Below, one piece after another: positions 10,278 through 61,636 of a stretch of 64,000 nt of DNA. Below the pieces are notes generated by a model, which was given only the letters and a program-made list of their open reading frames with translations, ran no database searches and was not told the origin of the DNA. Both the position numbers and the translations under genes were made by a program. Numbering within the stretch: the stretch's first letter is position 1; every line of letters starts with the position of its first letter. Source of the stretch: an uncultured Bacilli bacterium (GTDB lineage: Bacteria; Bacillota_I; Bacilli_A; RF39; UBA660); contig CAKPOS010000003.1 in NCBI GenBank assembly GCA_934176955.1, forward strand, positions 53,411 to 117,410, in the 5' to 3' direction.

Positions 10278-11378
10278 ATGGAAAATAATAAATTTAAACA
10301 ATTTTGTAGTTCTATTGATTATGATACTTATTATAAACTTCAAACTATTTTTGGATTTTCTAGTGTTGGGGTTTCTTTGACTAGTGATTTGATGTTATCA
10401 CAATATCCAATTTTGGGTAGTTCATTTGAAGTTTTAACATATCTTTTGTTTTCTGTATATTGTGGATTGTTTTTTTCGAAGGGTAAATATTATACAAAAG
10501 ATTTTAATCAAATTAGAAGTTTATATCAAGAGTTTATTACTAATTATAATCAATTAAATGAAATATTTGATTTTAATGATCCTATTCAAATTTATGTAAT
10601 GTATAATTATTTATTGGAAAAAGGTTATTTGTCTGTGAATAAAAAATTTGAATATTTAAACCAAGCGGGAAAGGATATTAAAATATTATATGGTGCAGAT
10701 GTTATAATGGGAAAAGGATGTTGTCGACATATTTCTGCTATGCTTACAGATATTTTAAATGATTATGGAATTGAATCTAGTCAATTAGGAGTATATTCAT
10801 TTAGATATGGTGTAAATGTAAAATTTTTAGAATATCCAAAATATACAAAAGAGGAATTAATTGATTGGGTTCAAACTCATATAACTGCTGAAAATACGTA
10901 TATGAAAATGATGGAGATTATTAAAAATTTAGTTGATGAAGAAGGATTAAGTATTGAATTGTCAACTAGGATTACTAAAGATAAAAATATATTAAAAAGA
11001 AAAATTGGTAATCATGCAATAACTTTTTCAGTTAAAGATGGGAAGAGTTATTATTTGGATCCTACTGAAGTGGTAATTTATAGGGTGAATGAGGAAGATA
11101 AAAATATATTGTGTGATGGAAAAGGAAATGCTATTTCAATTAAATTTTTGGGCTCAACTATTTTAAATGATTTTTCAGATTATTTGAAAAAAGAGGTATT
11201 ACAGCAATATCCTAGTGTTACTCGGGAAGAAGAGAAGAAAATGATTGTAAAAACGACTATGGATTGTAAAAATAATATGGATATATTTGAAAAGTTTTAT
11301 CATGAAAATAAGGATTTATATGGTGATATTTCTGATAAAATGTTAAAAATTAAGAAGAAGCCATTTATGGGCAGATAA
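10278..11378 (+). CDS. membrane-anchored transglutaminase-like cysteine peptidase (putative)
   Basis: Two N-terminal hydrophobic helices. GKGCCRHISAMLTDILNDYGIES resembles the transglutaminase-core G-x-C-x-x-F/I-A motif. A later GNHAITF...YYLDPTE gives a Cys-His-Asp arrangement. Confidence 0.55.
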   Translation: MENNKFKQFCSSIDYDTYYKLQTIFGFSSVGVSLTSDLMLSQYPILGSSFEVLTYLLFSVYCGLFFSKGKYYTKDFNQIRSLYQEFITNYNQLNEIFDFNDPIQIYVMYNYLLEKGYLSVNKKFEYLNQAGKDIKILYGADVIMGKGCCRHISAMLTDILNDYGIESSQLGVYSFRYGVNVKFLEYPKYTKEELIDWVQTHITAENTYMKMMEIIKNLVDEEGLSIELSTRITKDKNILKRKIGNHAITFSVKDGKSYYLDPTEVVIYRVNEEDKNILCDGKGNAISIKFLGSTILNDFSDYLKKEVLQQYPSVTREEEKKMIVKTTMDCKNNMDIFEKFYHENKDLYGDISDKMLKIKKKPFMGR

Positions 11379-11528
11379 GTGAAAAATACTTATTTAGATG
11401 ATTTCTATAAAAGAGAAAGAATTTATTTAGGTATTTTTTTAATTAAATGGTTTAATATTTTTAGAAAGTGGTATTAAAAAAGGAGGTTGTATATTCTTAA
11501 AATATATGATTATTTGTCTAAATACAAG

Positions 11529-11549
11529 TGTAACTATTTACACCCTAAA
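11529..11549. repeat. left arm of a 21-bp inverted repeat (tgtaactatttacaccctaaa)
   Basis: The reverse complement of 11992-12012 matches at 20/21 positions. Confidence 0.8.
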
Positions 11550-11566
11550 AAAATACATAACAAATG

Positions 11567-11590
11567 CCAGCTACTTAAGTAGCTGGTTTT
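11567..11590. terminator. hairpin terminator between convergent genes
   Basis: ccagctac-ttaa-gtagctgg followed by tttt on the + strand. Confidence 0.6.
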
Positions 11591-11620
11591 AGCTTATCTA
11601 ATTCATCAAAAGTATATGGT

Positions 11621-11911
11621 TCACCATTTACAAGTTTTTTTATTAACTTCTTTTTGAACTTTTTCTTCAACAGTTTTATTAAAATCATCTGTTAGTGAGA
11701 TATATCCCTTTTTATAATAATTTTGAAGATTATTAACTCTATTGACTTCCTTTTTTAAATCTTTTACTTTGCTTTTCAATTCTTGATTTTTTTGTTCTAA
11801 TTCATCTATTTTTTTTGAAGGAATCATCAAGTTTTTTTTTTTTTTTTTTTTTTTATTTAGTTCATCAATTTGTTCTTTTTCACGATTAATATTATCATCC
11901 ATGATTTTCAC
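11621..11911 (-). CDS. small Lys-rich coiled-coil protein containing an A23 tract
   Basis: 96-aa ORF with heptad-like EQ/K-rich sequence. It stays in frame across 23 consecutive A residues (11832-11854), which encode KKKKKKK. Confidence 0.45.
   Translation of the reverse strand: MKIMDDNINREKEQIDELNKKKKKKKNLMIPSKKIDELEQKNQELKSKVKDLKKEVNRVNNLQNYYKKGYISLTDDFNKTVEEKVQKEVNKKTCKW
11832..11854. repeat. homopolymer T23 (A23 on the coding strand)
   Basis: Counted directly from the sequence. Confidence 0.95.
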
Positions 11912-11991
11912 TACTTTCTACAATACATAGATTATAACAAAAAAGATTATAAATTAAAAGCATAAATTATAGGATATTCGCATACTCAAAA

Positions 11992-12012
11992 TTTAGGGTG
12001 TGAATAGTTACA
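11992..12012. repeat. right arm of the 21-bp inverted repeat (tttagggtgtgaatagttaca)
   Basis: Pairs with 11529-11549. Confidence 0.8.
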
Positions 12013-12041
12013 ACGAACTAGTTATCTACATGTGAAAAAAC

Positions 12042-12070
12042 TTGCTTTTTTTTTTTTTTTTTGATATTTT
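12042..12070 (+). promoter_or_regulatory. candidate promoter whose spacer is a T17 homopolymer (12046-12062)
   Basis: TTGCTT (12042-12047), 17-nt spacer made almost entirely of T, then TATTTT (12065-12070). It lies 57 nt upstream of the GTG start at 12127. Confidence 0.35.
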
Positions 12071-12126
12071 TTAGATAACTAGAAGATAAATAATTTTTAA
12101 TTATAGCGGTTGGAGAGTGGTTCTAG

Positions 12127-14742
12127 GTGAAGAAAGATAAAAGGAAAATAATTGGGGGATTTGTTGGGATAATATTATTTATGTGTTGTGTTACTTATTT
12201 TACGTATGCTTTTTATCAATGGAAGAGTGGTAATAGTGATGTTAATTTAACGATTAAAGATTCAACTGGAGGAGGAGAATGTTCTAATGGACCTAATGTA
12301 GATGTTTCTAATATTGGGCCTGTTTTAAATGTTAGTGATGGAGTAAAAGCTAACTTTTCTGTAAAAAATAAAAGTTCTTCTAGTATTTCTTTAACTTTAG
12401 GGTTAAAGATTACTTCAATTAGTAATCCTCTTAGAGTAGAATCTTTTAAATATGCTTTATATCAAGATACAACAGGGAATGATACTTTTGATTATAGTAC
12501 TAATCCTATTTTATCAGGTGATTTTAGTAAAATGCGTGTAGGAGATAATACATTATCTACTACTTTAACAGTAGAAAAGGAAAGTACTTATTCTTTTCAA
12601 TTTATTGTCTATATAGATGGAAATATGGAGAATGATTCTTCAATGATGAATAGTAGCTTATCCGCTTCAATTACTTATGGAGATTGTACGAATCCTTATA
12701 CCTATTTAGCAAGTGTTGAGCCGGGTAGTTATGTAAAATATATAGGTAATAATGGTTGCTCAGGAAAGTCTTGTGAAGGGCAGAATGCAAACTATGTTAG
12801 TGATACGGATATGGGATATTGTTATGGTTCAAGTTACAAATATAATGCAAATGGATGGCGCGTTGCTTATGTAAAAGATGGTACAGCTTATTTAACTAGT
12901 GCAGGTTCCCCTGAATGTATGTGTACGAATAATGATGGGACATCAGGGACAAGTTGTAATGGTTATGAAACAACGGATGGGATACCTAAGCATATAGCAA
13001 ATTTAAATTCAAAAGCTTTAGCTTACTGCAACAGTACTTATGCGTATGGGGGAAAGTGTGACAGTAATAGTGCATGGAATATGGCAGATGCAGACTTTCA
13101 AACTATTACAGGTGATAATTTAATTACAGCTTATAAAAAATCAAATTATAATAGTTATTCCATTATTAATAATGGGGGATATTATTGGTTTGCGACATCT
13201 GATTTTTCGTCCATGGTTGCGTTCTATTGGTACCCGAGCAATTGGAATGTGAATAGCAGCCGCTCGGAATTTGCGTACGGTCTTCGTCCAGTCCTACGTC
13301 TTGCCTCTTCCGTCATCGTGACAGGAGGCTCAGGTACCTATGAAGATCCTTATACAATTACAAATAAAATCACTAAGTTATCTGAAGCTGGAGAAGGTTC
13401 TTATGTAAAATATACAGGAAATAATGGTTGTTCAGGAAAGTCTTGTGAAGGACAGAATGCAAACTATGTCAGTGATACTGATATGGGATATTGCGATGAT
13501 TCTAGTTATAAATTTAACGCAAATGGTTGGCGTGTTGCTTATGTAAATGATGGTACAGCTTATTTAGCTAGTGCAGGATCACCTGAATGTATGTGTACCG
13601 ATAGTGATGGAACAGCAGGGACAAGTTGTAGTAATGATGAAGAAACAGGCGGATTGCCAAAACATATAGCAAATTTAAATTCAAAAGCTTTAGCTTACTG
13701 CAACAGTACTTATGCGTATGGGGGAAAGTGTGACAGTAATAGTGCATGGAATATAGCAGATGGCGACTTTCAAACTATTACAGGTGATACTTTAAGTACA
13801 CGTTTTAACTACTCAGGTGGTTATTATGATAGTTATTCCATTATTAATAATGGAGGATATTATTGGTTCGCGACGCCTCTTAGTTCCTCGTCCTCGTACG
13901 CTTTCATTTGGGACCCGAGCGGCTATCGAAAAGTGGCCGGCAGCTTCTCCAATATTTCGAACGGTCTTCGTCCCGTCCTACGTCTTGCTTCTTCCGTCGT
14001 CGTGACTGGAGGCTCTGGTACTTATGAAGATCCTTATACGATTTCAAACGGAAACACTAAGTTATCTGAAGTGGCACCCGGTAGTTATGTTAAATATACA
14101 GGAAATAATGGTTGCTCAGGAAAGTCCTGTGAAGGGCAAAATGCTAACTATGTTAGTGATACCAATATGGGATATTGTTATAATTTTGATTATAAATATA
14201 ATGCAAATGGATGGCGCGTTGCTTATGTAAAAGATGGTACAGCTTATTTAACTAGTGCAGGTTCCCCTGAATGTATGTGTACGAATAGTAATGGTGTAGC
14301 TGGAACAAGTTGTGGTAGTGATGATGTGGAAGAAACAAACGGATTGCCAAAACATATAGCAAATTTAAATACAAAAGCTTTAGCTTATTGTAATAGTACT
14401 TATGCGTATGGCGGAAAATGTGATAGTAATAGTGCGTGGAATATGGTAGATGCAGACTTTCAAGCAATAACAGGGGATACATTAAGTGCAGCTTATGATC
14501 AATCAGGTGGTTATTATGATAGTTATTCCATTATTAATAATGGAGGATATTATTGGTTCGCGACGCCTCATAAATCCACGTCCACGTTAGCGTTCTATTG
14601 GGCTCCGAGTGATCGACTCGTGAACAACTACTACTCGAACAGCGCGTACGGCCTTCGTCCAGTCCTACGTCTTCAATCTTCCGTCACTGTGACAGGAGGT
14701 ACAGGAACATATGTAGATCCATATAAGATTGAAATTAAATAA
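12127..14742 (+). CDS. surface/secreted protein with an N-terminal signal anchor, an Ig-like region and three tandem Cys-rich modules ending in GLRPVLRL
   Basis: 871-aa ORF with GGAGAG RBS and GTG start. The TM segment is IIGGFVGIILFMCCVTYFTYAF. The triplicated module is described under findings. Confidence 0.8.
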   Translation: MKKDKRKIIGGFVGIILFMCCVTYFTYAFYQWKSGNSDVNLTIKDSTGGGECSNGPNVDVSNIGPVLNVSDGVKANFSVKNKSSSSISLTLGLKITSISNPLRVESFKYALYQDTTGNDTFDYSTNPILSGDFSKMRVGDNTLSTTLTVEKESTYSFQFIVYIDGNMENDSSMMNSSLSASITYGDCTNPYTYLASVEPGSYVKYIGNNGCSGKSCEGQNANYVSDTDMGYCYGSSYKYNANGWRVAYVKDGTAYLTSAGSPECMCTNNDGTSGTSCNGYETTDGIPKHIANLNSKALAYCNSTYAYGGKCDSNSAWNMADADFQTITGDNLITAYKKSNYNSYSIINNGGYYWFATSDFSSMVAFYWYPSNWNVNSSRSEFAYGLRPVLRLASSVIVTGGSGTYEDPYTITNKITKLSEAGEGSYVKYTGNNGCSGKSCEGQNANYVSDTDMGYCDDSSYKFNANGWRVAYVNDGTAYLASAGSPECMCTDSDGTAGTSCSNDEETGGLPKHIANLNSKALAYCNSTYAYGGKCDSNSAWNIADGDFQTITGDTLSTRFNYSGGYYDSYSIINNGGYYWFATPLSSSSSYAFIWDPSGYRKVAGSFSNISNGLRPVLRLASSVVVTGGSGTYEDPYTISNGNTKLSEVAPGSYVKYTGNNGCSGKSCEGQNANYVSDTNMGYCYNFDYKYNANGWRVAYVKDGTAYLTSAGSPECMCTNSNGVAGTSCGSDDVEETNGLPKHIANLNTKALAYCNSTYAYGGKCDSNSAWNMVDADFQAITGDTLSAAYDQSGGYYDSYSIINNGGYYWFATPHKSTSTLAFYWAPSDRLVNNYYSNSAYGLRPVLRLQSSVTVTGGTGTYVDPYKIEIK
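12691..14715 (+). repeat. three tandem coding repeats: R1 12691-13344, R2 13345-14028, R3 14029-14715
   Basis: Unit boundaries are set at the recurring (D/N)PYT(I/Y) motif. R1 and R2 share a 92-nt perfectly identical stretch (12991-13082 = 13663-13754). Confidence 0.9.
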
Positions 14743-18715: not shown

Positions 18716-18787
18716 TAAAGAAAACAAGTTCTAGGTAACTAGAACTTCTTCTTTATCAAAAAATAACAAAAGAAAGTAGGAATAAAG

Positions 18788-33858: not shown

Positions 33859-34086
33859 TCCTATTTTTCTCCTTCCTGCTAGGTTAATCTTAATTTTATT
33901 ATATAAGATAAATCTAAAATTTGAAGTAGACTAGACAGAAATTTTACATTAATTGATAAATTCTTTATTTTTTTTGATTTGAATAAAATACTGATAAAGA
34001 TGCTTTTTTATTAGAAAGATTTAAGTTAATAATTTAAAAAAATATGATTATTTGTTATAATATAAGTAATAAAGTAGGTGTTATAT

Positions 34087-37000
34087 ATGGTAGAACATAT
34101 AAAAGAAGTACTAAGAGAATCTGTAAATAGAAAAAATCCTTCTTATGCTAGAAACAATCTAACGGAAGAAGAAAAAGACTATTTTTTTAATAATTTAGAT
34201 TTCTTTTTAAAAGTTAGTAATGAAGAAAATTTTAATAGAGATTCAGTTCTAAATATTATTTCAGAGATGTCCACGCAAGAGAAGGCAATGAAGAGACTTA
34301 AAAATATACAAGAAATGAATCAAATGCAAAAATTTATAATCATTAATAATTTGCCAAACGATAAACTGAAAACAGAAAATTTACCATTATTAGATGATGA
34401 AGATTCTAAGTTTAAGATAATCTGTAATATGGTAGATGATGGAGAAAAAATTAAAGTTTTACCATTATTAAATGATATTGATAGATATGTCATAATGTAT
34501 GGAATGACAGATGATGAACAGATAAAAAAAGGAATCCCCTTAATTGAAAATGAAAAACATAAGGCTGAGATCATACAACGTCTGGGAACAGACAAATTAA
34601 AATATGAGACCATAGATAATTTGAAAGAAGATAAATATATAACAGATGTAGTAACAGGATTGTCATTTGAATATCAATATCATTACCTACTAAAAATACT
34701 GAAAACAGACAATAAGAATGAACTTATATATCAAATTTTATTAGGAATACCCCAAGAAGAAAAGACTAAGATTTTTTCATTGCTAGAGAATAGGGAAAAA
34801 GAAGTAATGGTAATGAATCTATCAAATAATGAAGAAAAAAAGTTTTTTATTGATTTATTGAATGAAGAATCTAAACTAAAAGTACTAAAAAAAATGTCAA
34901 ATGATGAAGAAAGAATATTAGTATTTAATTCTATTTCATCTCCAAATACAAAAATAGAGAATTTGCCATTGCTAGAGAATGAAGAGTCTAAATCTATGGT
35001 AATCCAATCCCTTTCAACGGATGATGAAAAAATTAAAGGATTAAATTTCTTAAAAAGAAATTCTGAAAAATTTAATGTAATCAATACTTTATCAACAGAT
35101 GACAAGAAAATAGAGGGATTAAGTCACTTAGAAGGAGATTTTGACAAAGTTAAAGTAATAAAAAAATTATCAAATGATAGAAAAAAATTAGATAGTTTAC
35201 CTTTATTAACAGATGAAACTCAAAGGAGTGAGGTAATAGAGACTTTTTCAATCGATAGGATGAAAATAGAAGCCCTAAAGTTTTTAAATTCGGATTGGGA
35301 AAAGGTTAAAATAATAAAAGCGTTAACGATTGGAGATAAAAAACAAAATTTGTCACAATTAAAAAATGATAAAGCAAAAACAGAAATAATACTTACTTTC
35401 CCAGGAGAGGATGAAAAAATAAAAGAATTATCTATATTGCAAGATGATTATGCAAAACTTCTAGTAATATATAGCTTGTCGCCTGACGAAAAATTTAATC
35501 ATTTGATGGAGATTAAAAAAGCAGAAAATCGTCTTATTTTAATAAAAAGTATGAATGAAGAATATAAAATTAAGGCATTAAATAAAGAATATGGATTGAT
35601 ATTTAAAAAAAATTTTTCTAACAATTTAAATAATAAATACAGTGATTTACAGCCAATGAATGAAAATCTATTGGCAGAAATTGTTATCTCATTAACTGAC
35701 ATAGAACAAAAAGTAAAATTATTACCATATTTTAAGGAAAACAATGTTTTAAGTATTGTTTATTCTTTAAAAACAGAAACCCAAAAATTAGAGGCACTTA
35801 AATATATTAGTAGTAATACTATAAAATTAGAAATACTTTCACAACTTTCTCCAGAAAATATAACTTCAGGATTAGATGATTTAACATGGTTTAGTAATGA
35901 AGAAGATAGAGGATATAGTAAAAAGTTAAAAATTATTGAAGAATATCAGAAAATGTTAGAAGAAAAAAATGACTATCAAAAAAATGCTTTTGTAAATTAT
36001 ATCGAAAATCATCATGAAAATTTAGAGGAAAGTTCAATAAGTCAGATTACAAATATTCTAAGTCGATTTAGTAAATCTAATTCTTTAGAATTATCTAATT
36101 TAAAAGAACAATTAACCCCATTAGTACTTTCAACACAAAATCCTATAGAATCATTTAATAAAATAGAAAAAATATTTTTAAAAAACAATATTCCTATGTT
36201 TGGAAAAGAATTTTTATGTTTTCAAAACCTATATCCAGAATTTCAAAAAGAACAAGGAGAAGAAAAAATATTTGATTTTACAGAAGGAAGTAGGATATCT
36301 CCTGAACTTCTTCATCCTACTCAAACAAGAAAAATGAAAGTAGTATCAAAAAATGCTACAAATAAAGATATTCGCTTTCAAATTGTATTCAATGATTTAC
36401 TAAGAATTGCCAGTCGTTCAAATAATCGTTCTTTAATAGAGTATCTAAATAATATTGAATATGGAAATACTTTATTTTTAGGAATATCAAAAGGAATAAT
36501 AACGTTTAATGACTTAGATGATAAATCAAAACAAATATTAGATGTTTTTTCCAATCATTTAGCAGCCTTATACGAAAATACTGAAAAAGGATCAGAAGAA
36601 ATTTTTGAAAATTTATCTACTGTGGAAAAGATTGCTTACTTTTCTCGAAAATTTAGTCCGACCAGCAGGTATGATTTACCTGATAGAATTGTTAGAAGTT
36701 TTGCTTATCAAGCAGGAATTGAAAGTTTTGAACAATTTAAGGACATTGTGATAAATTCTGTCCGAGAAAAAGAAGTAGTTTCAAAGAAAAAATCAGAAGA
36801 GTTAAAAAACGGAAAAAAGTTAGTTTTAGAACCAGGAGATTTTATTAGAGGTATAGGGAATATTGATTGCGTGGAAAGTTCTTTAAATAATGGCAATATA
36901 TGTAAAGAATTTTTAGGAACATTTTTGGGGGAAAGTAAATCTGATACGACGCCATTAGATGTTGATTTAACTTTAATTACCGAAGAAAATACGGATATTT

Positions 37001-38553
37001 ATCATAATATTGAAAATACTCCAACAGGCTTTGGTTTTGGTAATATTTATGTCATTTTAAAAAAAGATAATCCCAATTTAAATATTACTCGTGATAAAGA
37101 GGGAAATTTAACAGGTAAAGAATATAATCCATCTAAAGTAGAAGTATTTGGAACAAATACGCAGAAAGGTGGTTATGAAGCACACTGGGGAGCGCGGACA
37201 GGAATTGCTTCATCAGACATAGATTACATTTTATTTAAAGAAGACTTAACAATTGATCCCGAAAATCCATATTCTGAAGATGGAAAAGTAAATTATATTT
37301 TACCTAAATCAGAATTTGAAAAGAAAGAGTATTATGGTAAGCATCAAAATGATTTAGCAATCTTAAAAAATGAAGTAGTAAAAAATGGATTTTATATTCC
37401 TATTGTAGATTTTTCGGGAAAAATTATTTTTACTGATGAAGAGTATCAAGAATTAAAACAAAAGATGGAAGGATTATCACATTATGAAAGTAAAGAGTAT
37501 CATTTAAAACAGCACCAATATAGTGATTACACAGAAAGAATAAAAGGATTGTTAGCTAGTAACAAACAAGAAACAAAAATTCAATCACAAAAAGTATATC
37601 AAGCACTATCTAATATCATTCAATCCATTCCTATAGATGAAAATTCAACTAAAACCTTACAAGCTAAAAACAAAATAGGAATTGATTTAACGCCTGGAAG
37701 TGTAGAAGTATTAGAAACTGGATCATCAGTTAGAGGAACAAATGTTCCATATGATTTTGACTTTGACTATATTTTTAGATTAGATTCTAATATGATTAAC
37801 AATGCCGAAAAAATGCATCAGTTCCGTACAAAAATATGTGAAGCATTAAATATTACTTCAGTACCATCTGGTGAATTCCGAGATGTAGAAGCAACTATTC
37901 CAGGACTAGGAACAATAAAATTAGACATTACTTTCATTCAAAAAAATGATAAAGTAGAATATTCCACAGAAATGGCTTTGCAAGATAGAATGGATACTAT
38001 TTATAAAAGTAACCCAGCAGTAGGAGATGAAGTAACAGCAAATATCATACTAGCAAAACTACTTTTAAAACAAGCTGGCTGCTATAAGCCAGAGAGAAAA
38101 GATTCAAATCAAGGTGGATTAGGTGGAGTAGGAATAGAAAACTGGATTACCCAAAATGGAGGTACCCTAGAAACTGCTGCTAATAGTTTTTTAAAAGCAT
38201 CTGAAGGCAAAACATATGAAGAATTCAAACAAATTTACCATATTCATGATTATGGAAAAAATCACTTGTATAAAGAAAAGAACAAATATCCTTATGATGA
38301 TTTTATCTTTAATAACATGAATCGTATAGGATATCAAAAAATGCAAGAAGTATTAAGAAAATATATTCGATATTTATCAGGAGAAAAAGACCTTTTCCCA
38401 GAGTTAGAAGAAGTTTTAAATGCATTAGAACAACAACAAGAAAAAGAAGTAACAATTACACATAGTAGAGGAATAGTTTCTTTCTTTATCTTAATTAGTT
38501 TAAGTTTATTGATTTCTATCATAACCATTATTGATATCCTTTTAAGAAAATAG
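34087..38553 (+). CDS. giant repeat-containing protein with a Pol-beta-type nucleotidyltransferase signature and a C-terminal TM anchor
   Basis: AGGTG RBS 7 nt before ATG 34087; the track start is 34078. Carries a 26-aa repeat array, GSSVRGT...DFDFD and a terminal hydrophobic helix followed by RK. Confidence 0.75.
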   Translation: MVEHIKEVLRESVNRKNPSYARNNLTEEEKDYFFNNLDFFLKVSNEENFNRDSVLNIISEMSTQEKAMKRLKNIQEMNQMQKFIIINNLPNDKLKTENLPLLDDEDSKFKIICNMVDDGEKIKVLPLLNDIDRYVIMYGMTDDEQIKKGIPLIENEKHKAEIIQRLGTDKLKYETIDNLKEDKYITDVVTGLSFEYQYHYLLKILKTDNKNELIYQILLGIPQEEKTKIFSLLENREKEVMVMNLSNNEEKKFFIDLLNEESKLKVLKKMSNDEERILVFNSISSPNTKIENLPLLENEESKSMVIQSLSTDDEKIKGLNFLKRNSEKFNVINTLSTDDKKIEGLSHLEGDFDKVKVIKKLSNDRKKLDSLPLLTDETQRSEVIETFSIDRMKIEALKFLNSDWEKVKIIKALTIGDKKQNLSQLKNDKAKTEIILTFPGEDEKIKELSILQDDYAKLLVIYSLSPDEKFNHLMEIKKAENRLILIKSMNEEYKIKALNKEYGLIFKKNFSNNLNNKYSDLQPMNENLLAEIVISLTDIEQKVKLLPYFKENNVLSIVYSLKTETQKLEALKYISSNTIKLEILSQLSPENITSGLDDLTWFSNEEDRGYSKKLKIIEEYQKMLEEKNDYQKNAFVNYIENHHENLEESSISQITNILSRFSKSNSLELSNLKEQLTPLVLSTQNPIESFNKIEKIFLKNNIPMFGKEFLCFQNLYPEFQKEQGEEKIFDFTEGSRISPELLHPTQTRKMKVVSKNATNKDIRFQIVFNDLLRIASRSNNRSLIEYLNNIEYGNTLFLGISKGIITFNDLDDKSKQILDVFSNHLAALYENTEKGSEEIFENLSTVEKIAYFSRKFSPTSRYDLPDRIVRSFAYQAGIESFEQFKDIVINSVREKEVVSKKKSEELKNGKKLVLEPGDFIRGIGNIDCVESSLNNGNICKEFLGTFLGESKSDTTPLDVDLTLITEENTDIYHNIENTPTGFGFGNIYVILKKDNPNLNITRDKEGNLTGKEYNPSKVEVFGTNTQKGGYEAHWGARTGIASSDIDYILFKEDLTIDPENPYSEDGKVNYILPKSEFEKKEYYGKHQNDLAILKNEVVKNGFYIPIVDFSGKIIFTDEEYQELKQKMEGLSHYESKEYHLKQHQYSDYTERIKGLLASNKQETKIQSQKVYQALSNIIQSIPIDENSTKTLQAKNKIGIDLTPGSVEVLETGSSVRGTNVPYDFDFDYIFRLDSNMINNAEKMHQFRTKICEALNITSVPSGEFRDVEATIPGLGTIKLDITFIQKNDKVEYSTEMALQDRMDTIYKSNPAVGDEVTANIILAKLLLKQAGCYKPERKDSNQGGLGGVGIENWITQNGGTLETAANSFLKASEGKTYEEFKQIYHIHDYGKNHLYKEKNKYPYDDFIFNNMNRIGYQKMQEVLRKYIRYLSGEKDLFPELEEVLNALEQQQEKEVTITHSRGIVSFFILISLSLLISIITIIDILLRK

Positions 38554-55921: not shown

Positions 55922-57508
55922 ATGATAAAGTCGTTTATATTTCTATTAAAATACAAAATATTAAAAGATCCAATCAATCTATCTTATCATCCACAAGAGT
56001 TTTTTCAATTAAATAAAAATACCCAAAGAAAAGTTCTAGATCAGTATTTTCTTAAATTAGAAAAAACATTTCCTATAGATACTTACTTTAATACTAAGGA
56101 AGCAAGATATTACCAAGATAATGAAGAAGTTAGTTTTTATCACTGCTACTATTTTGACAAATTAGCAATAGAATTAAATCCTAATAATATTTCATTAATT
56201 GATAAATTTAAACTTGATCAAGAAAAACTAGATTATTTAGTGTCTTATTATTTAACTATTGTTCAAGAAGATAATCTATCCTTTAACATTGAAAATTTAT
56301 TAATCTATCCTGAAAAACTTCCTTTAGCGCTAAGTCAAAATATTGATTTTATGCATTATGCTATAGAAAAAGATTTTAAAAATATAAAATATTTAGTTTA
56401 CAATGAAAAATGTTTTACTCAACAAAGAGCATTAATTCAACTTTCTTTAGTCAAAGCAAGAGAAATTAATGCTCCCTTAGATATATTCTTAAAAAAAGAT
56501 CATACTCTTTCTAAAGAGTTAAAAAATAACTTTGATTTTATTTTATATTTAATCGAAAATAATATTTGCTATATTGAATATTTAACAGAAGAAATTCTAA
56601 ATCAAACTACTCCTACTAGTAAAGATTTATTAACAAAAACAATTATTACTTCATTAAAGAAAAATCCAGAATCATTAAAAATCGTAGAAAAGAACTTTGC
56701 TATTGCAACAGAATTAAATGAAAATTTAGAATTTATTGAATACTTAATTTCTGATAATATTCAAAATATTTCTTATATTAATTGGCAACATTTACCAGAT
56801 AAAGCAAGAAATGATATGATTAATTATCTAACAAAAAAACTAGAAGAAAATCATCAGACAATTGATATTATGAAGTATCCTTTTTATCATTTCTTCTTTG
56901 AAAATTATGCTTTTATGAATTATCTTATTCAAAGTGATTTTCGCTGGATAGCAGTAAGCCAAGTAAACGAAAAGGAAAACCAAGATAAATTAATTGATTT
57001 AAGCTTAAAAAAAATGAAACAAACAAATTATAAATTTAAATTAGAAGATTTTTTAGAAGATGGCAAACACATGAATTCTCATTTAGTTGAAAATAAAAAG
57101 ATGCTAGGATATTTTTTTCAAAATCAAGTTCCTATTGTTTGGTATATCAATTTTTTTCAATTAAATCATCCTAAAAATGTTGTGGAAAATATCCTCTTTT
57201 TCATTGAAAAAAAAGATTACGAATTTCATAATGAAGAATTTTTAGTGAATGGGAAATATCCTATTCCTTTAAGCAATAGTTATCGTTTTATGCGTTTTTG
57301 TATTGATAAGAATTTTAACAATTTAGCTTATATTGATTTATCAATGTTAGACAAAAGAGAATTAAAAAGAATCATCAATTATGCTTTTAGAATGGTCTAT
57401 TACATTAGAGGAAATAACAAAAAGTTAAATTTTGATTTTGAAGGGTATTTTCAAAATTCCGATATTATTCATGATCAGTATTTTCAGGAATGTTTAAAAA
57501 GTTTATGA
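55922..57508 (+). CDS. DUF4116-like repeat protein
   Basis: The unit [DE]F..Y.I..[DN]...[IL].Y[IL] recurs at least 5 times, for example DFMHYAIEKDFKNIKYL, DFILYLIENNICYIEYL and EFIEYLISDNIQNISYI. Confidence 0.5.
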   Translation: MIKSFIFLLKYKILKDPINLSYHPQEFFQLNKNTQRKVLDQYFLKLEKTFPIDTYFNTKEARYYQDNEEVSFYHCYYFDKLAIELNPNNISLIDKFKLDQEKLDYLVSYYLTIVQEDNLSFNIENLLIYPEKLPLALSQNIDFMHYAIEKDFKNIKYLVYNEKCFTQQRALIQLSLVKAREINAPLDIFLKKDHTLSKELKNNFDFILYLIENNICYIEYLTEEILNQTTPTSKDLLTKTIITSLKKNPESLKIVEKNFAIATELNENLEFIEYLISDNIQNISYINWQHLPDKARNDMINYLTKKLEENHQTIDIMKYPFYHFFFENYAFMNYLIQSDFRWIAVSQVNEKENQDKLIDLSLKKMKQTNYKFKLEDFLEDGKHMNSHLVENKKMLGYFFQNQVPIVWYINFFQLNHPKNVVENILFFIEKKDYEFHNEEFLVNGKYPIPLSNSYRFMRFCIDKNFNNLAYIDLSMLDKRELKRIINYAFRMVYYIRGNNKKLNFDFEGYFQNSDIIHDQYFQECLKSL

Positions 57509-59257: not shown

Positions 59258-60156
59258 ATTTAGTAGTAATGGCTGCTGGTATGGGAAGTCGTTTTGGTGG
59301 ATTAAAGCAACTAACGCCAGTTGGCCCACATGGGGAATTTTTGATTGATTACTCAATATATGACGCCAAAAAAGCTGGAGTGAACAAAGTAATTTTTGTC
59401 ATCAGAAAAGATATGGAAGAAGATTTTAGAAAAACAATAGGAAAAAGAATAGAAAAATTTATTGAAGTTTGTTATGCCTATCAAGAATTAGAAGATACAC
59501 CAATTTTAGTAGAGCAAAAAAGAAGTAAACCTTGGGGAACAGGACAAGCCTTACTTGCTAGTAGAAACCAAGTCGATGCACCATTCATGGTCATTAATGC
59601 AGATGATTTTTATGGAAGAGATGCTTTTATGAAATTAGGAAAATTTTTAAAAGAAATCAAAACAACAGAAAAAAATCATTATGCTATGGTAGCGTATTTG
59701 TTAAAAAATACTTTAAGCGATAATGGCAGTGTATCAAGAGGAATCTGTGAAATTGATGATGGTTTCTTAAAGAAAGTAACAGAATGTACAAAGATTGAAC
59801 GACAAGGAAATAAAATTATTTCGTATGGAGAAGAAGTACAAGAATTAGCAGAAGATACATTAGTATCTCTTAACTTATTTGGGTTTACCAAAGAAATATT
59901 TAAAGAAGCAAGCAAATATTTTAAAGAATTTTTGCTTCAAGAAAAAGACTTAGAGAAAAAAGAATTTTATTTACCATCTATCGTTCAAAAGACAATTGAT
60001 GAAGGAAATTCAGATATGAAAGTTCTTTCAACAACCTCTTCCTTTCATGGAATGACTTACAAGGAAGATATGGATAAATTAAAAGAATACATAAAAGGGT
60101 TAATTCAAGAGGGAATTTATCCCGAAAAACTATGGGAGGAAAATAATGAAAAATAA
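59254..60156 (+). CDS. sugar-phosphate nucleotidyltransferase
   Basis: MAAGMGSRFGGLKQ N-terminal signature and INADDFYG. Confidence 0.7.
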   Translation: MNLVVMAAGMGSRFGGLKQLTPVGPHGEFLIDYSIYDAKKAGVNKVIFVIRKDMEEDFRKTIGKRIEKFIEVCYAYQELEDTPILVEQKRSKPWGTGQALLASRNQVDAPFMVINADDFYGRDAFMKLGKFLKEIKTTEKNHYAMVAYLLKNTLSDNGSVSRGICEIDDGFLKKVTECTKIERQGNKIISYGEEVQELAEDTLVSLNLFGFTKEIFKEASKYFKEFLLQEKDLEKKEFYLPSIVQKTIDEGNSDMKVLSTTSSFHGMTYKEDMDKLKEYIKGLIQEGIYPEKLWEENNEK

Positions 60157-61636
60157 CAAAAGACCACTAATTATTGTGAGCATCATCATCATCTTAATGA
60201 TATGTGCTGCTTTTACATCAAGAAGTTTTCAAAATGACACATTTTATACCATTAAAGTAGGGGAATCTATTGTCAAAAATGGAATAGATATGAAAGATCA
60301 TTTTTCTATTCACAAATTAGCGTATACTTATCCGCATTGGCTATATGATGTTATCACCTATAAACTATATCAACTAGGAGGATTAGAAGGATTATATCAA
60401 TGTACAATACTGATTTTTATGATTATTGGTATTATTTTCTATTTGATGAATATTAAGAAAAATAAAAGTTATTTTGTTAGCTTATTGTTTAGTATTTTAG
60501 CTATGATTATGCTAGCAAGATTTGTAACAGCAAGAGCACAACTCATTACCTATTTACTATTTTTAATTGAAATTATCTTCATCGAAAATCTGCTACAAGA
60601 TGGGAAAAAATGGAATCTGATAGGTTTATTCCTAATCAGTATTTTAATCGCCAATCTTCATGCAGCAGTATGGCCATTTTACTTCATTTTAATGCTACCA
60701 TATTTATTTGAGTATCTAATAACAAAAATAGTTAGCAAAATAAAAAATAAACCTAAACTAGGTATCTTTGAAAAGAAAATAGACCTTGTCCAAAATAAAA
60801 ATATTAAATATTTGGGATTCATTTTTCTAATTAGTTTACCTCTAGGATTATTAACACCAATTGGGGATGTTCCTTATACTTACTTTATTAAAATTTTACA
60901 AGGAAACACTATGCAATATATCAATGAACATAAACCATTAGTATTAATTGAAAACTTCTTTGTTATCGGCTATCTTTTCATCTTACTGATTCCTTTAATT
61001 TTCACTAAAGTAAAAATTCGTCTTTCTGATTTAATCATGATATTAGGCTTATTATTCATGTCATTTTTATCCGTAAGACATATTGCCTTATTAGCAGTAG
61101 TAGGAATGTTTTATTTATGTCGTTTAATCTCTAATATCGGCTTAATCAACAGCAAAAAAACATTAGATTTTGAATTGCCTTGGTATAGTGTCTTTATCGT
61201 TTTAGTAACGATTATCATTACATCAGGAATTGTTTATAACATTAATAGAAAAGAAGAGTTTATTGATACCAATACTTATCCTGTAACAATGGTAGATTAC
61301 ATGAAAAAAAATCTAGATATGAAAAAAGTCAAACTTTATAATGAATATGATTTTGGTAGCTATCTAATTTATCAAGACATTAAAGTATTTGTTGATTCAA
61401 GAAGTGATTTATATACTAAACCATTCAATCATCAAACCGATATCTTTAATGAATCGATGAAAATCACGGAAAAATATGGTAGAGTATTTCAAAAATATGG
61501 AATTACCCATATCTTAATTTATAAAGATACTGACTTAAATCAAATTTTAGCCGCATCACCAAATTATAAACTTCTTCATAAAGAGGGAAGATTCATGCTA
61601 TATGAATATACGGTTAATGTTGAAAAGGAAGCATAA
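60146..61636 (+). CDS. polytopic membrane protein, possibly a GT-C-type glycosyltransferase
   Basis: About 11 TM helices plus a C-terminal soluble domain. The context is a nucleotidyltransferase and a GT2. No motif is certain. Confidence 0.35.
   Translation: MKNNKRPLIIVSIIIILMICAAFTSRSFQNDTFYTIKVGESIVKNGIDMKDHFSIHKLAYTYPHWLYDVITYKLYQLGGLEGLYQCTILIFMIIGIIFYLMNIKKNKSYFVSLLFSILAMIMLARFVTARAQLITYLLFLIEIIFIENLLQDGKKWNLIGLFLISILIANLHAAVWPFYFILMLPYLFEYLITKIVSKIKNKPKLGIFEKKIDLVQNKNIKYLGFIFLISLPLGLLTPIGDVPYTYFIKILQGNTMQYINEHKPLVLIENFFVIGYLFILLIPLIFTKVKIRLSDLIMILGLLFMSFLSVRHIALLAVVGMFYLCRLISNIGLINSKKTLDFELPWYSVFIVLVTIIITSGIVYNINRKEEFIDTNTYPVTMVDYMKKNLDMKKVKLYNEYDFGSYLIYQDIKVFVDSRSDLYTKPFNHQTDIFNESMKITEKYGRVFQKYGITHILIYKDTDLNQILAASPNYKLLHKEGRFMLYEYTVNVEKEA

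Follow-up and report, generated by a model that had tools for sequence, protein, structure and literature searches.

A homopolymer of 17 T residues fills almost the entire spacer of a putative promoter in the 64-kb stretch of uncultured Bacilli DNA analysed here (the window), and it is probably best explained as part of a slipped-strand contingency promoter, in which the tract length sets the spacing of the promoter of a surface-protein gene. The T tract would be the spacer of a sigma-A-type promoter with an UP-like A6 run, the -35 element TTGCTT, T(n) and the extended -10 element TGA-TATTTT, and the gene expressed from it would encode a large Cys-rich repeat protein that is secreted or anchored in the membrane. 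By slipped-strand mispairing in replication T residues would be gained or lost, every such change would displace the -35 and -10 elements relative to each other, in distance as well as in rotation, and the rate of transcription initiation would change with it. A clonal population would keep yielding cells with differing levels of the protein, which is the behaviour of a contingency locus. At least one paralog in the same genome has the same cassette, so that the expression of each family member might vary on its own, as is the case for the vlp genes of Mycoplasma hyorhinis. The identity of the promoter, its start site, slippage in vivo and the effect on expression are what we infer here.

The tract and the promoter layout

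The T17 homopolymer is located at positions 12046-12062 of the plus strand and is uninterrupted. According to a census of the 64-kb window, the only runs longer than nine nucleotides are T17 and T23 (11832-11854), as had been reported in a previous inspection of this DNA (the sequence-only reading). The histogram of T run lengths stops at 9 and continues only with 17 and 23. With a G+C content of 27.7% and the T-to-T transition frequency of the window itself, approximately 0.004 T runs of at least 17 nucleotides are expected in 64 kb. The T17 tract is a non-chance feature.

The putative -35 hexamer TTGCTT (12042-12047) overlaps with the tract, its final two T residues being the first two of T17. 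The -10 hexamer TATTTT is found at 12065-12070, and the 17-nt spacer between the hexamers consists of 15 T residues followed by GA. These positions and the GTG start codon at 12127 had been given by the sequence-only reading and were confirmed. Other elements had not been mentioned there: T12062 together with the subsequent G and A forms a TGn extended -10 ahead of TATTTT (12062-12070 altogether), a run of six A residues (A6, 12035-12040) lies one base 5′ of the -35 element, and an exact 11-bp inverted repeat flanks the promoter (CTAGTTATCTA at 12018-12028 and TAGATAACTAG at 12072-12082, arms separated by 43 bp). Judging from its position, the A6 run is UP-like and may be a proximal UP-element subsite. 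Transcription is predicted from the position of the -10 element to start at approximately 12077-12078, a site that is spanned by the right arm of the inverted repeat. A ribosome-binding site (GGAGAG, 12112-12117) is located 9 nt ahead of the GTG of the gene for the 871-aa protein (12127-14742, plus strand).

The -35 hexamer TTGCTT fits the consensus at three of six positions (TTG), and its assignment is in effect set by where the T tract starts. Because of this 3/6 match the site was not listed by a generic promoter scan, which requires at least four of six matches per hexamer. From the divergent ORF to the GTG, the same scan revealed no further promoter on the plus strand, and the 140 nt that precede the gene contain exactly one TTGNNN-N(15-20)-TGn-TANNNT site, as is the case for each ortholog and paralog examined. 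Both results agree with the earlier statement that this is the only plausible promoter of the gene. Approximately 4% of random 140-nt stretches of the window would hold such a site with a spacer of 16-19 nt.

A scan for terminators found two terminator-like sites, compared to 0.0 expected in shuffled sequences. The GC-rich hairpin followed by T residues at 11566-11587 would insulate the surface-protein gene from the plus strand ORF upstream. A role of the T tract itself as terminator or RNA structure was rejected: the region 12010-12130 folds no better than its shuffles (z = -0.74), and the T run is not preceded by a GC-rich stem. A search of positions 11300-12400 against Rfam yielded no meaningful match.

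Tract length in related assemblies

Loci from eight further assemblies were retrieved via the exact 871-aa protein, the exact HrcA protein and close homologs. All sequences are short-read metagenome assemblies (MEGAHIT k141, SPAdes NODE, scaffolds) and each gives a consensus only; several of them share one study (ERZ272869xx-ERZ272870xx) and are possibly not fully independent. A pure T tract is present in all eight. It is 17 nt long in one assembly (ERZ28614021, L021), as in the window, 18 nt in five (ERZ27286996, L001/L014; ERZ27287018, L013; ERZ27287024, L015/L023; ERZ28615059, L019/L024; ERZ4562321, L022/L025) and 19 nt in two (ERZ28616343, L002; ERZ27286913, L018). The modal length is thus 18 (five of nine assemblies), which is also the length in the paralog described below. 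Invariance among related strains, the outcome on which the sequence-only reading had made its proposal depend, was not found: 17, 18 and 19 all occur across the nine assemblies.

The surroundings of the tract vary far less. The nine assemblies agree in both hexamers, in TGn and A6 and in the left inverted-repeat arm, and the right arm differs solely by a C-to-A exchange in L001. Four of the assemblies (L015, L018, L019 and L022) match each other with 0 mismatches for 1500 bp to the left and to the right of the tract, while their tracts measure 18, 19, 18 and 18 in the short-read consensus. Over 8.6 kb the window differs from L001 by two substitutions and two indels, and the indels are found solely in homopolymers (17 vs 18 and 23 vs 29). 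Since the flanks are identical and the tracts differ, no other site of the locus comes close to the tract in variability.

In the Illumina consensus of a 17-19-nt homopolymer, one-base differences could be technical. If all length differences were sequencing or assembly artefacts, the tract would have a fixed length in vivo and no phase variation would take place; the exclusive use of short-read metagenome assemblies and lengths that deviate just one base to either side of 18 would be in line with that. We consider this explanation very improbable, because the paralog and every one of the nine assemblies have the pure tract, and because the neighbouring tract differs by 6 nt (T23 vs T29) between two near-identical assemblies, more than consensus errors typically amount to. 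To our knowledge, homopolymers of at least 17 nt are unstable in every bacterium examined.

The confinement to 17-19 nt and the purity of the tract, which is not interrupted by another base in any of the ten copies (nine assemblies and the paralog), argue for selection that would hold the tract at lengths compatible with promoter function. Alternatively, the tract might be hypermutable but near-neutral. The extended -10, maybe together with AT-rich upstream DNA, would then drive transcription, TTGCTT would not be a working -35 element, and the tract would be an expanded, slippage-prone T-rich spacer in which one-base changes matter little. The -35 match of 3/6 that escaped the promoter scan is compatible with this, as are the TGn extended -10 elements, which are the norm among the candidate promoters of the window, those of housekeeping genes included, and the T-rich spacer of the tract-free paralogs (AATCTTCTCTTTTTATGA), which could seed a tract by drift. 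On the other hand, TTG is unchanged at the left edge of the tract in the orthologs and the paralog, the length is held to 17-19 in copies that have diverged elsewhere, and not a single substitution is present within the tract in ten copies, although a neutral tract is expected to wander and decay. A near-neutral tract therefore appears unlikely to us, and the contingency promoter is preferred.

The promoter cassette in other contexts

The conserved cassette is approximately 85 bp long and comprises one arm of the inverted repeat, A6, the -35 element, T(n), the extended -10 and the second arm. Assembly L002 carries it in a different context: its upstream DNA differs wholly, as both the 366-aa ORF and the 442-bp small-ORF segment described below are missing, and the homology restarts exactly at the left arm and runs to the start codon. 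The 5′ UTR of L002 (2449-2462, corresponding to approximately 12083-12089 of the window) contains seven additional bp (GATAAGT), by which a GATAA motif is duplicated in tandem. They sit between the right arm and the ribosome-binding site and extend the leader from 56 to 63 nt.

A second family locus with the tract cassette, besides the gene adjacent to hrcA, is that of the paralog P0061 (605 aa, 60% identity). It is encoded on the same contig as L001, adjoining gap, within a cluster of related genes. The P0061 promoter reads GTTATCTACATGTGAAAAAACTTGC-T18-GATATTGTTTAGATAACTAGAA; its homology to the cassette starts at the left arm, A6 and TTGCTT are unchanged, the -10 element is TATTGT and the inverted repeat is kept as 8 bp, while the flanking sequence is otherwise unrelated. 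In all cases the cassette is located 5′ of a family gene in one orientation. Because it is found in unrelated contexts but always before a family gene, the cassette travels with the family genes.

The cluster around P0061 (L026, 1-4818) consists of related secreted-protein genes upstream of gap and includes an 854-aa family member in addition to P0061; within the L026 DNA examined, the P0061 promoter is the only one covered among the cluster genes. A 558-aa protein encoded there has four internal repeats of approximately 125 aa and, past the N-terminal hydrophobic segment, a TYAKFTS motif, which we take to be reminiscent of SipW/TasA-type signals.

Other paralogs are free of the tract. These are encoded at the MMPL/PBP5 locus (L003, L004, L006-L012), and the single-unit relative L005 belongs here as well. 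Their promoters contain TTGAAA, a fixed 18-nt T-rich spacer, TGn and TAAAAT or TAGAAT. The T tract is therefore not a family-wide mechanism, the closest paralogs at the MMPL/PBP5 locus being without it. A protein scan of species-representative genomes revealed one locus, L005, which encodes a tract-free relative of 415 aa. DNA-pattern scans of JGI metagenomes for the cassette, with both flanks or the left flank alone, gave no match, and neither did a scan of a viral contig collection for the cassette.

The different contexts also bear on two candidates that we rejected. A role of the tract, as A17 on the minus strand, for the divergent small ORF does not fit, since the cassette is present in L002 and L026 without a divergent gene (two of three contexts) and always lies 5′ of a family gene. 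An invertible promoter was discarded as well, as the arms are just 43 bp apart, ten copies have one orientation and no recombinase gene is located nearby.

The arms might however have a regulatory function. A putative DNA-binding protein could bind to the near-palindromic arms TAGTTATCTA and TAGATAACTA, and the tract length would then shift the phasing of these operators, together with the -35/-10 spacing or instead of it. Several features are in line with such a protein: the arms bracket the promoter, one lying 5′ of the -35 element and the other over the start site; each arm is self-complementary at 8 of 10 positions; the exact repeat is conserved with 11 bp in L002 and with 8 bp in the paralog; and the homology of the cassette reaches from the left arm past the right arm to TAAATAA, approximately 25 nt after the -10 element. 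A precedent is described in PMC2791445, where operators of NadR flank a phase-variable tract. But no candidate regulator gene adjoins the locus, the right arm of L001 carries the C-to-A exchange, and exact copies of the arms are not found elsewhere in the 64-kb window, in which matches with one mismatch occur at chance level (5 vs 2.25 expected). The arms could also simply mark the edges of a segment that was copied between paralogs. Altogether, we regard control through operator phasing as quite unlikely. A broader version, to which we likewise assign a low probability, would make the cassette of approximately 85 bp a portable variable-expression module that is copied between paralogous surface-protein genes, with the arms as putative operators and a tract that sets both spacing and operator phasing, so that control would be stochastic as well as responsive.

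Variation in the upstream region

The second long homopolymer of the window, T23 at 11832-11854, is A23 on the minus strand and encodes seven lysine residues (K7) in a putative 93-aa Lys/Glu-rich coiled-coil ORF (11621-11902, minus strand) with a weak ribosome-binding site. The L001 counterpart is A29, which is 6 nt longer and keeps the frame. Six other assemblies have AAATTAAAAAAACAA at this site and no long run; there the ORF is split into pieces of 30 aa and 68 aa in different frames. T23/A23 thus has the appearance of a coding homopolymer whose recent expansion fuses two reading frames.

A 21-nt inverted repeat (11529-11549 and 11992-12012, 20 of 21 positions complementary) brackets a 442-bp segment that harbours the small ORF as well as the terminator-like hairpin (11566-11587). 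The segment is missing from L002, where a single arm of this repeat abuts the promoter cassette. No inversion of the segment was seen, as all eight assemblies carrying it have it in one orientation. Further upstream, a 366-aa ORF (10278-11378) is present in the window and most assemblies and absent from L002. This presence or absence identifies the region upstream of the surface-protein gene as a hotspot of presence/absence variation.

Downstream, a gene for an AAA_14/DUF4143 ATPase of 437-447 aa is located between dnaK and dnaJ in L013, L015, L017 and L020 (equivalent to 18716-18787 of the window). The window, L014 and L016 are without this insertion, and a related gene also flanks the paralog at the PBP5 locus.

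The protein and its host

The surface-protein gene is located immediately upstream of hrcA-grpE-dnaK-dnaJ on a chromosome with a strong purine skew on the coding strand. An AlphaFold model of the 871-aa protein (mean pLDDT 77.6) contains an N-terminal helix (residues 6-25), a beta-sandwich domain (approximately 40-185) and three well-predicted Cys-rich units of approximately 225 aa each, with 28 Cys residues in total. The N-terminus, VKKDKRKIIGGFVGIILFMCCVTYFTYAFYQW, is without a canonical lipobox. From its N-terminal helix, beta-sandwich domain and Cys-rich units the protein is plausibly extracellular, either secreted or membrane-anchored.

The 871-aa protein, the small ORF and the 366-aa ORF had no significant family match in Pfam, NCBIfam, PHROGs, PADLOC or a PDB sequence profile. 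With Foldseek against the PDB the N-terminal domain gave weak matches only, to carbohydrate-binding, pre-peptidase C-terminal and enterotoxin receptor-binding modules, and the repeat unit of approximately 225 aa gave none. A megablast search with 8 kb against phage records was without a match. Elsewhere in the window, a 1491-aa ORF (34078-38553) has no Pfam match at E<=1e-5, and the ORFs for 528 aa (55922-57508) and 496 aa (60146-61636) have no match either.

The size of the gene varies: three units of approximately 225 aa (869-871 aa) are encoded in the window, L001 and L002, while the genes of six other assemblies have only two (643 aa). The gene bodies of the latter six are approximately 91% identical to that of the window, compared to approximately 99% for the upstream DNA. 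The coding region therefore diverges much faster than its flanks.

All 254 homologs of the 871-aa protein are sequences of uncultured Bacilli from metagenomes, mostly of the human gut and including Hadza samples. Hadza samples and European-type cohorts have identical strains in common. Genes for BacA, GlmS and a PBP5-type carboxypeptidase are present in the host, and its long ORFs stay open under code 11, with TGA as stop codon. It therefore belongs to a walled low-G+C Bacilli lineage and is not a mycoplasma.

Expected output and relevance

The sequence-only reading had proposed phase variation through tract length, with 17 nt as the optimal ON length. The comparison of assemblies supports the first part, since the tract is conserved and varies between 17 and 19 nt, but a clean ON/OFF switch is doubtful with an extended -10. 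Promoters of this type tolerate poor or mis-spaced -35 elements, and all observed tract lengths are in or beside the functional range. Graded control is at least as likely as ON/OFF control, and because of the extended -10 and the natural lengths of 17, 18 and 19 nt, a stepwise output (strong, intermediate, weak) would be likelier than a strict switch.

The optimal length is a different matter. The six clearest intergenic promoter candidates of the window have TGn -10 elements and spacers of 16-17 nt, which favours 17 as ON length. The modal tract length is 18, however, and so are all spacers of the tract-free paralogs, so that 17 is not established as the optimum. Counting a loose motif (TTGNNN-N-TGnTANNNT) over the whole window gave background frequency at every spacing and is uninformative on the preferred one. 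We expect an output of approximately 17 ≈ 18 > 19.

Promoter switches driven by slippage have been described almost entirely in cultured pathogens, namely mycoplasmas, Neisseria, Haemophilus and Helicobacter. The mechanism itself is not new, but the same design would now be present in an uncultured, widespread Bacilli lineage of the human gut and in a novel protein family. At least two members of this large uncharacterised Cys-rich repeat family appear to have the design, which would make them likely targets of host or phage selection. The tract length at the two loci might serve as a marker that can be scored from reads to follow the within-host population dynamics of a commensal.

Comparison with known systems

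The closest architecture is that of the M. hyorhinis vlp genes. As summarised in PMC10502178 from Citti & Wise 1995, a poly-A tract between the -35 and -10 elements undergoes frequent insertion and deletion there, the genes of the family switch independently and the products vary in size. Both systems share an A:T homopolymer of approximately 17-20 nt that fills the promoter spacer and would be altered in length by slippage (seen here as natural polymorphism), a multi-gene family of surface proteins (putative ones here) with more than one member under the same promoter cassette, and size variation by gain or loss of repeats (three units vs two here). The proteins themselves are different. The protein described here, with no family match in Pfam or NCBIfam and homologs from uncultured Bacilli throughout, has no sequence relation to Vlp and no lipobox, its N-terminal helix is followed by folded domains, and its repeats are Cys-rich domains of approximately 225 aa, whereas those of Vlp are short tandem peptides. 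In addition, the host makes peptidoglycan (BacA, GlmS, PBP5) and uses TGA as stop, the -10 element is extended (TGn) and some paralogs are without the tract. The locus is thus an architectural analog of the vlp system and not a member of the Vlp family.

The vmm gene of Mycoplasma mycoides SC has a TA repeat in its promoter spacer (PMC10502178). As in the present locus, a simple-sequence repeat separates the -35 from the -10 element, so that the spacing of the vmm promoter governs transcription of this surface protein gene. Promoter-spacer repeats are also found in Neisseria and Haemophilus, in opc, porA and hifA/B. The vmm, Neisseria and Haemophilus repeats are dinucleotides or poly-C/G and belong to other phyla, and their correlation with expression is experimental.

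In Helicobacter pylori, a poly-T tract in the sabA promoter acts as a 'rheostat' for graded, multi-level expression of the adhesin (PMC4081817). Graded behaviour like that of sabA seems more likely for the locus described here than a binary switch. The sabA tract reportedly adjoins the -35 element on the upstream side instead of lying in the spacer, and is said to act via the DNA geometry relative to UP-like elements.

Repeat length can also alter the spacing of protein-binding elements, as outlined in PMC2791445 for nadA and its regulator NadR in Neisseria meningitidis, where operator sites flank the phase-variable tract. In nadA a tetranucleotide is repeated, at a site upstream of the core promoter, and the repressor has been identified; for the present locus, a role of the arms as operators is speculative. 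With a repeat in the spacer and a polymorphism with conserved flanks, the locus fits, in these sequence-level features, the transcriptional (promoter-spacer) class of SSR contingency loci.
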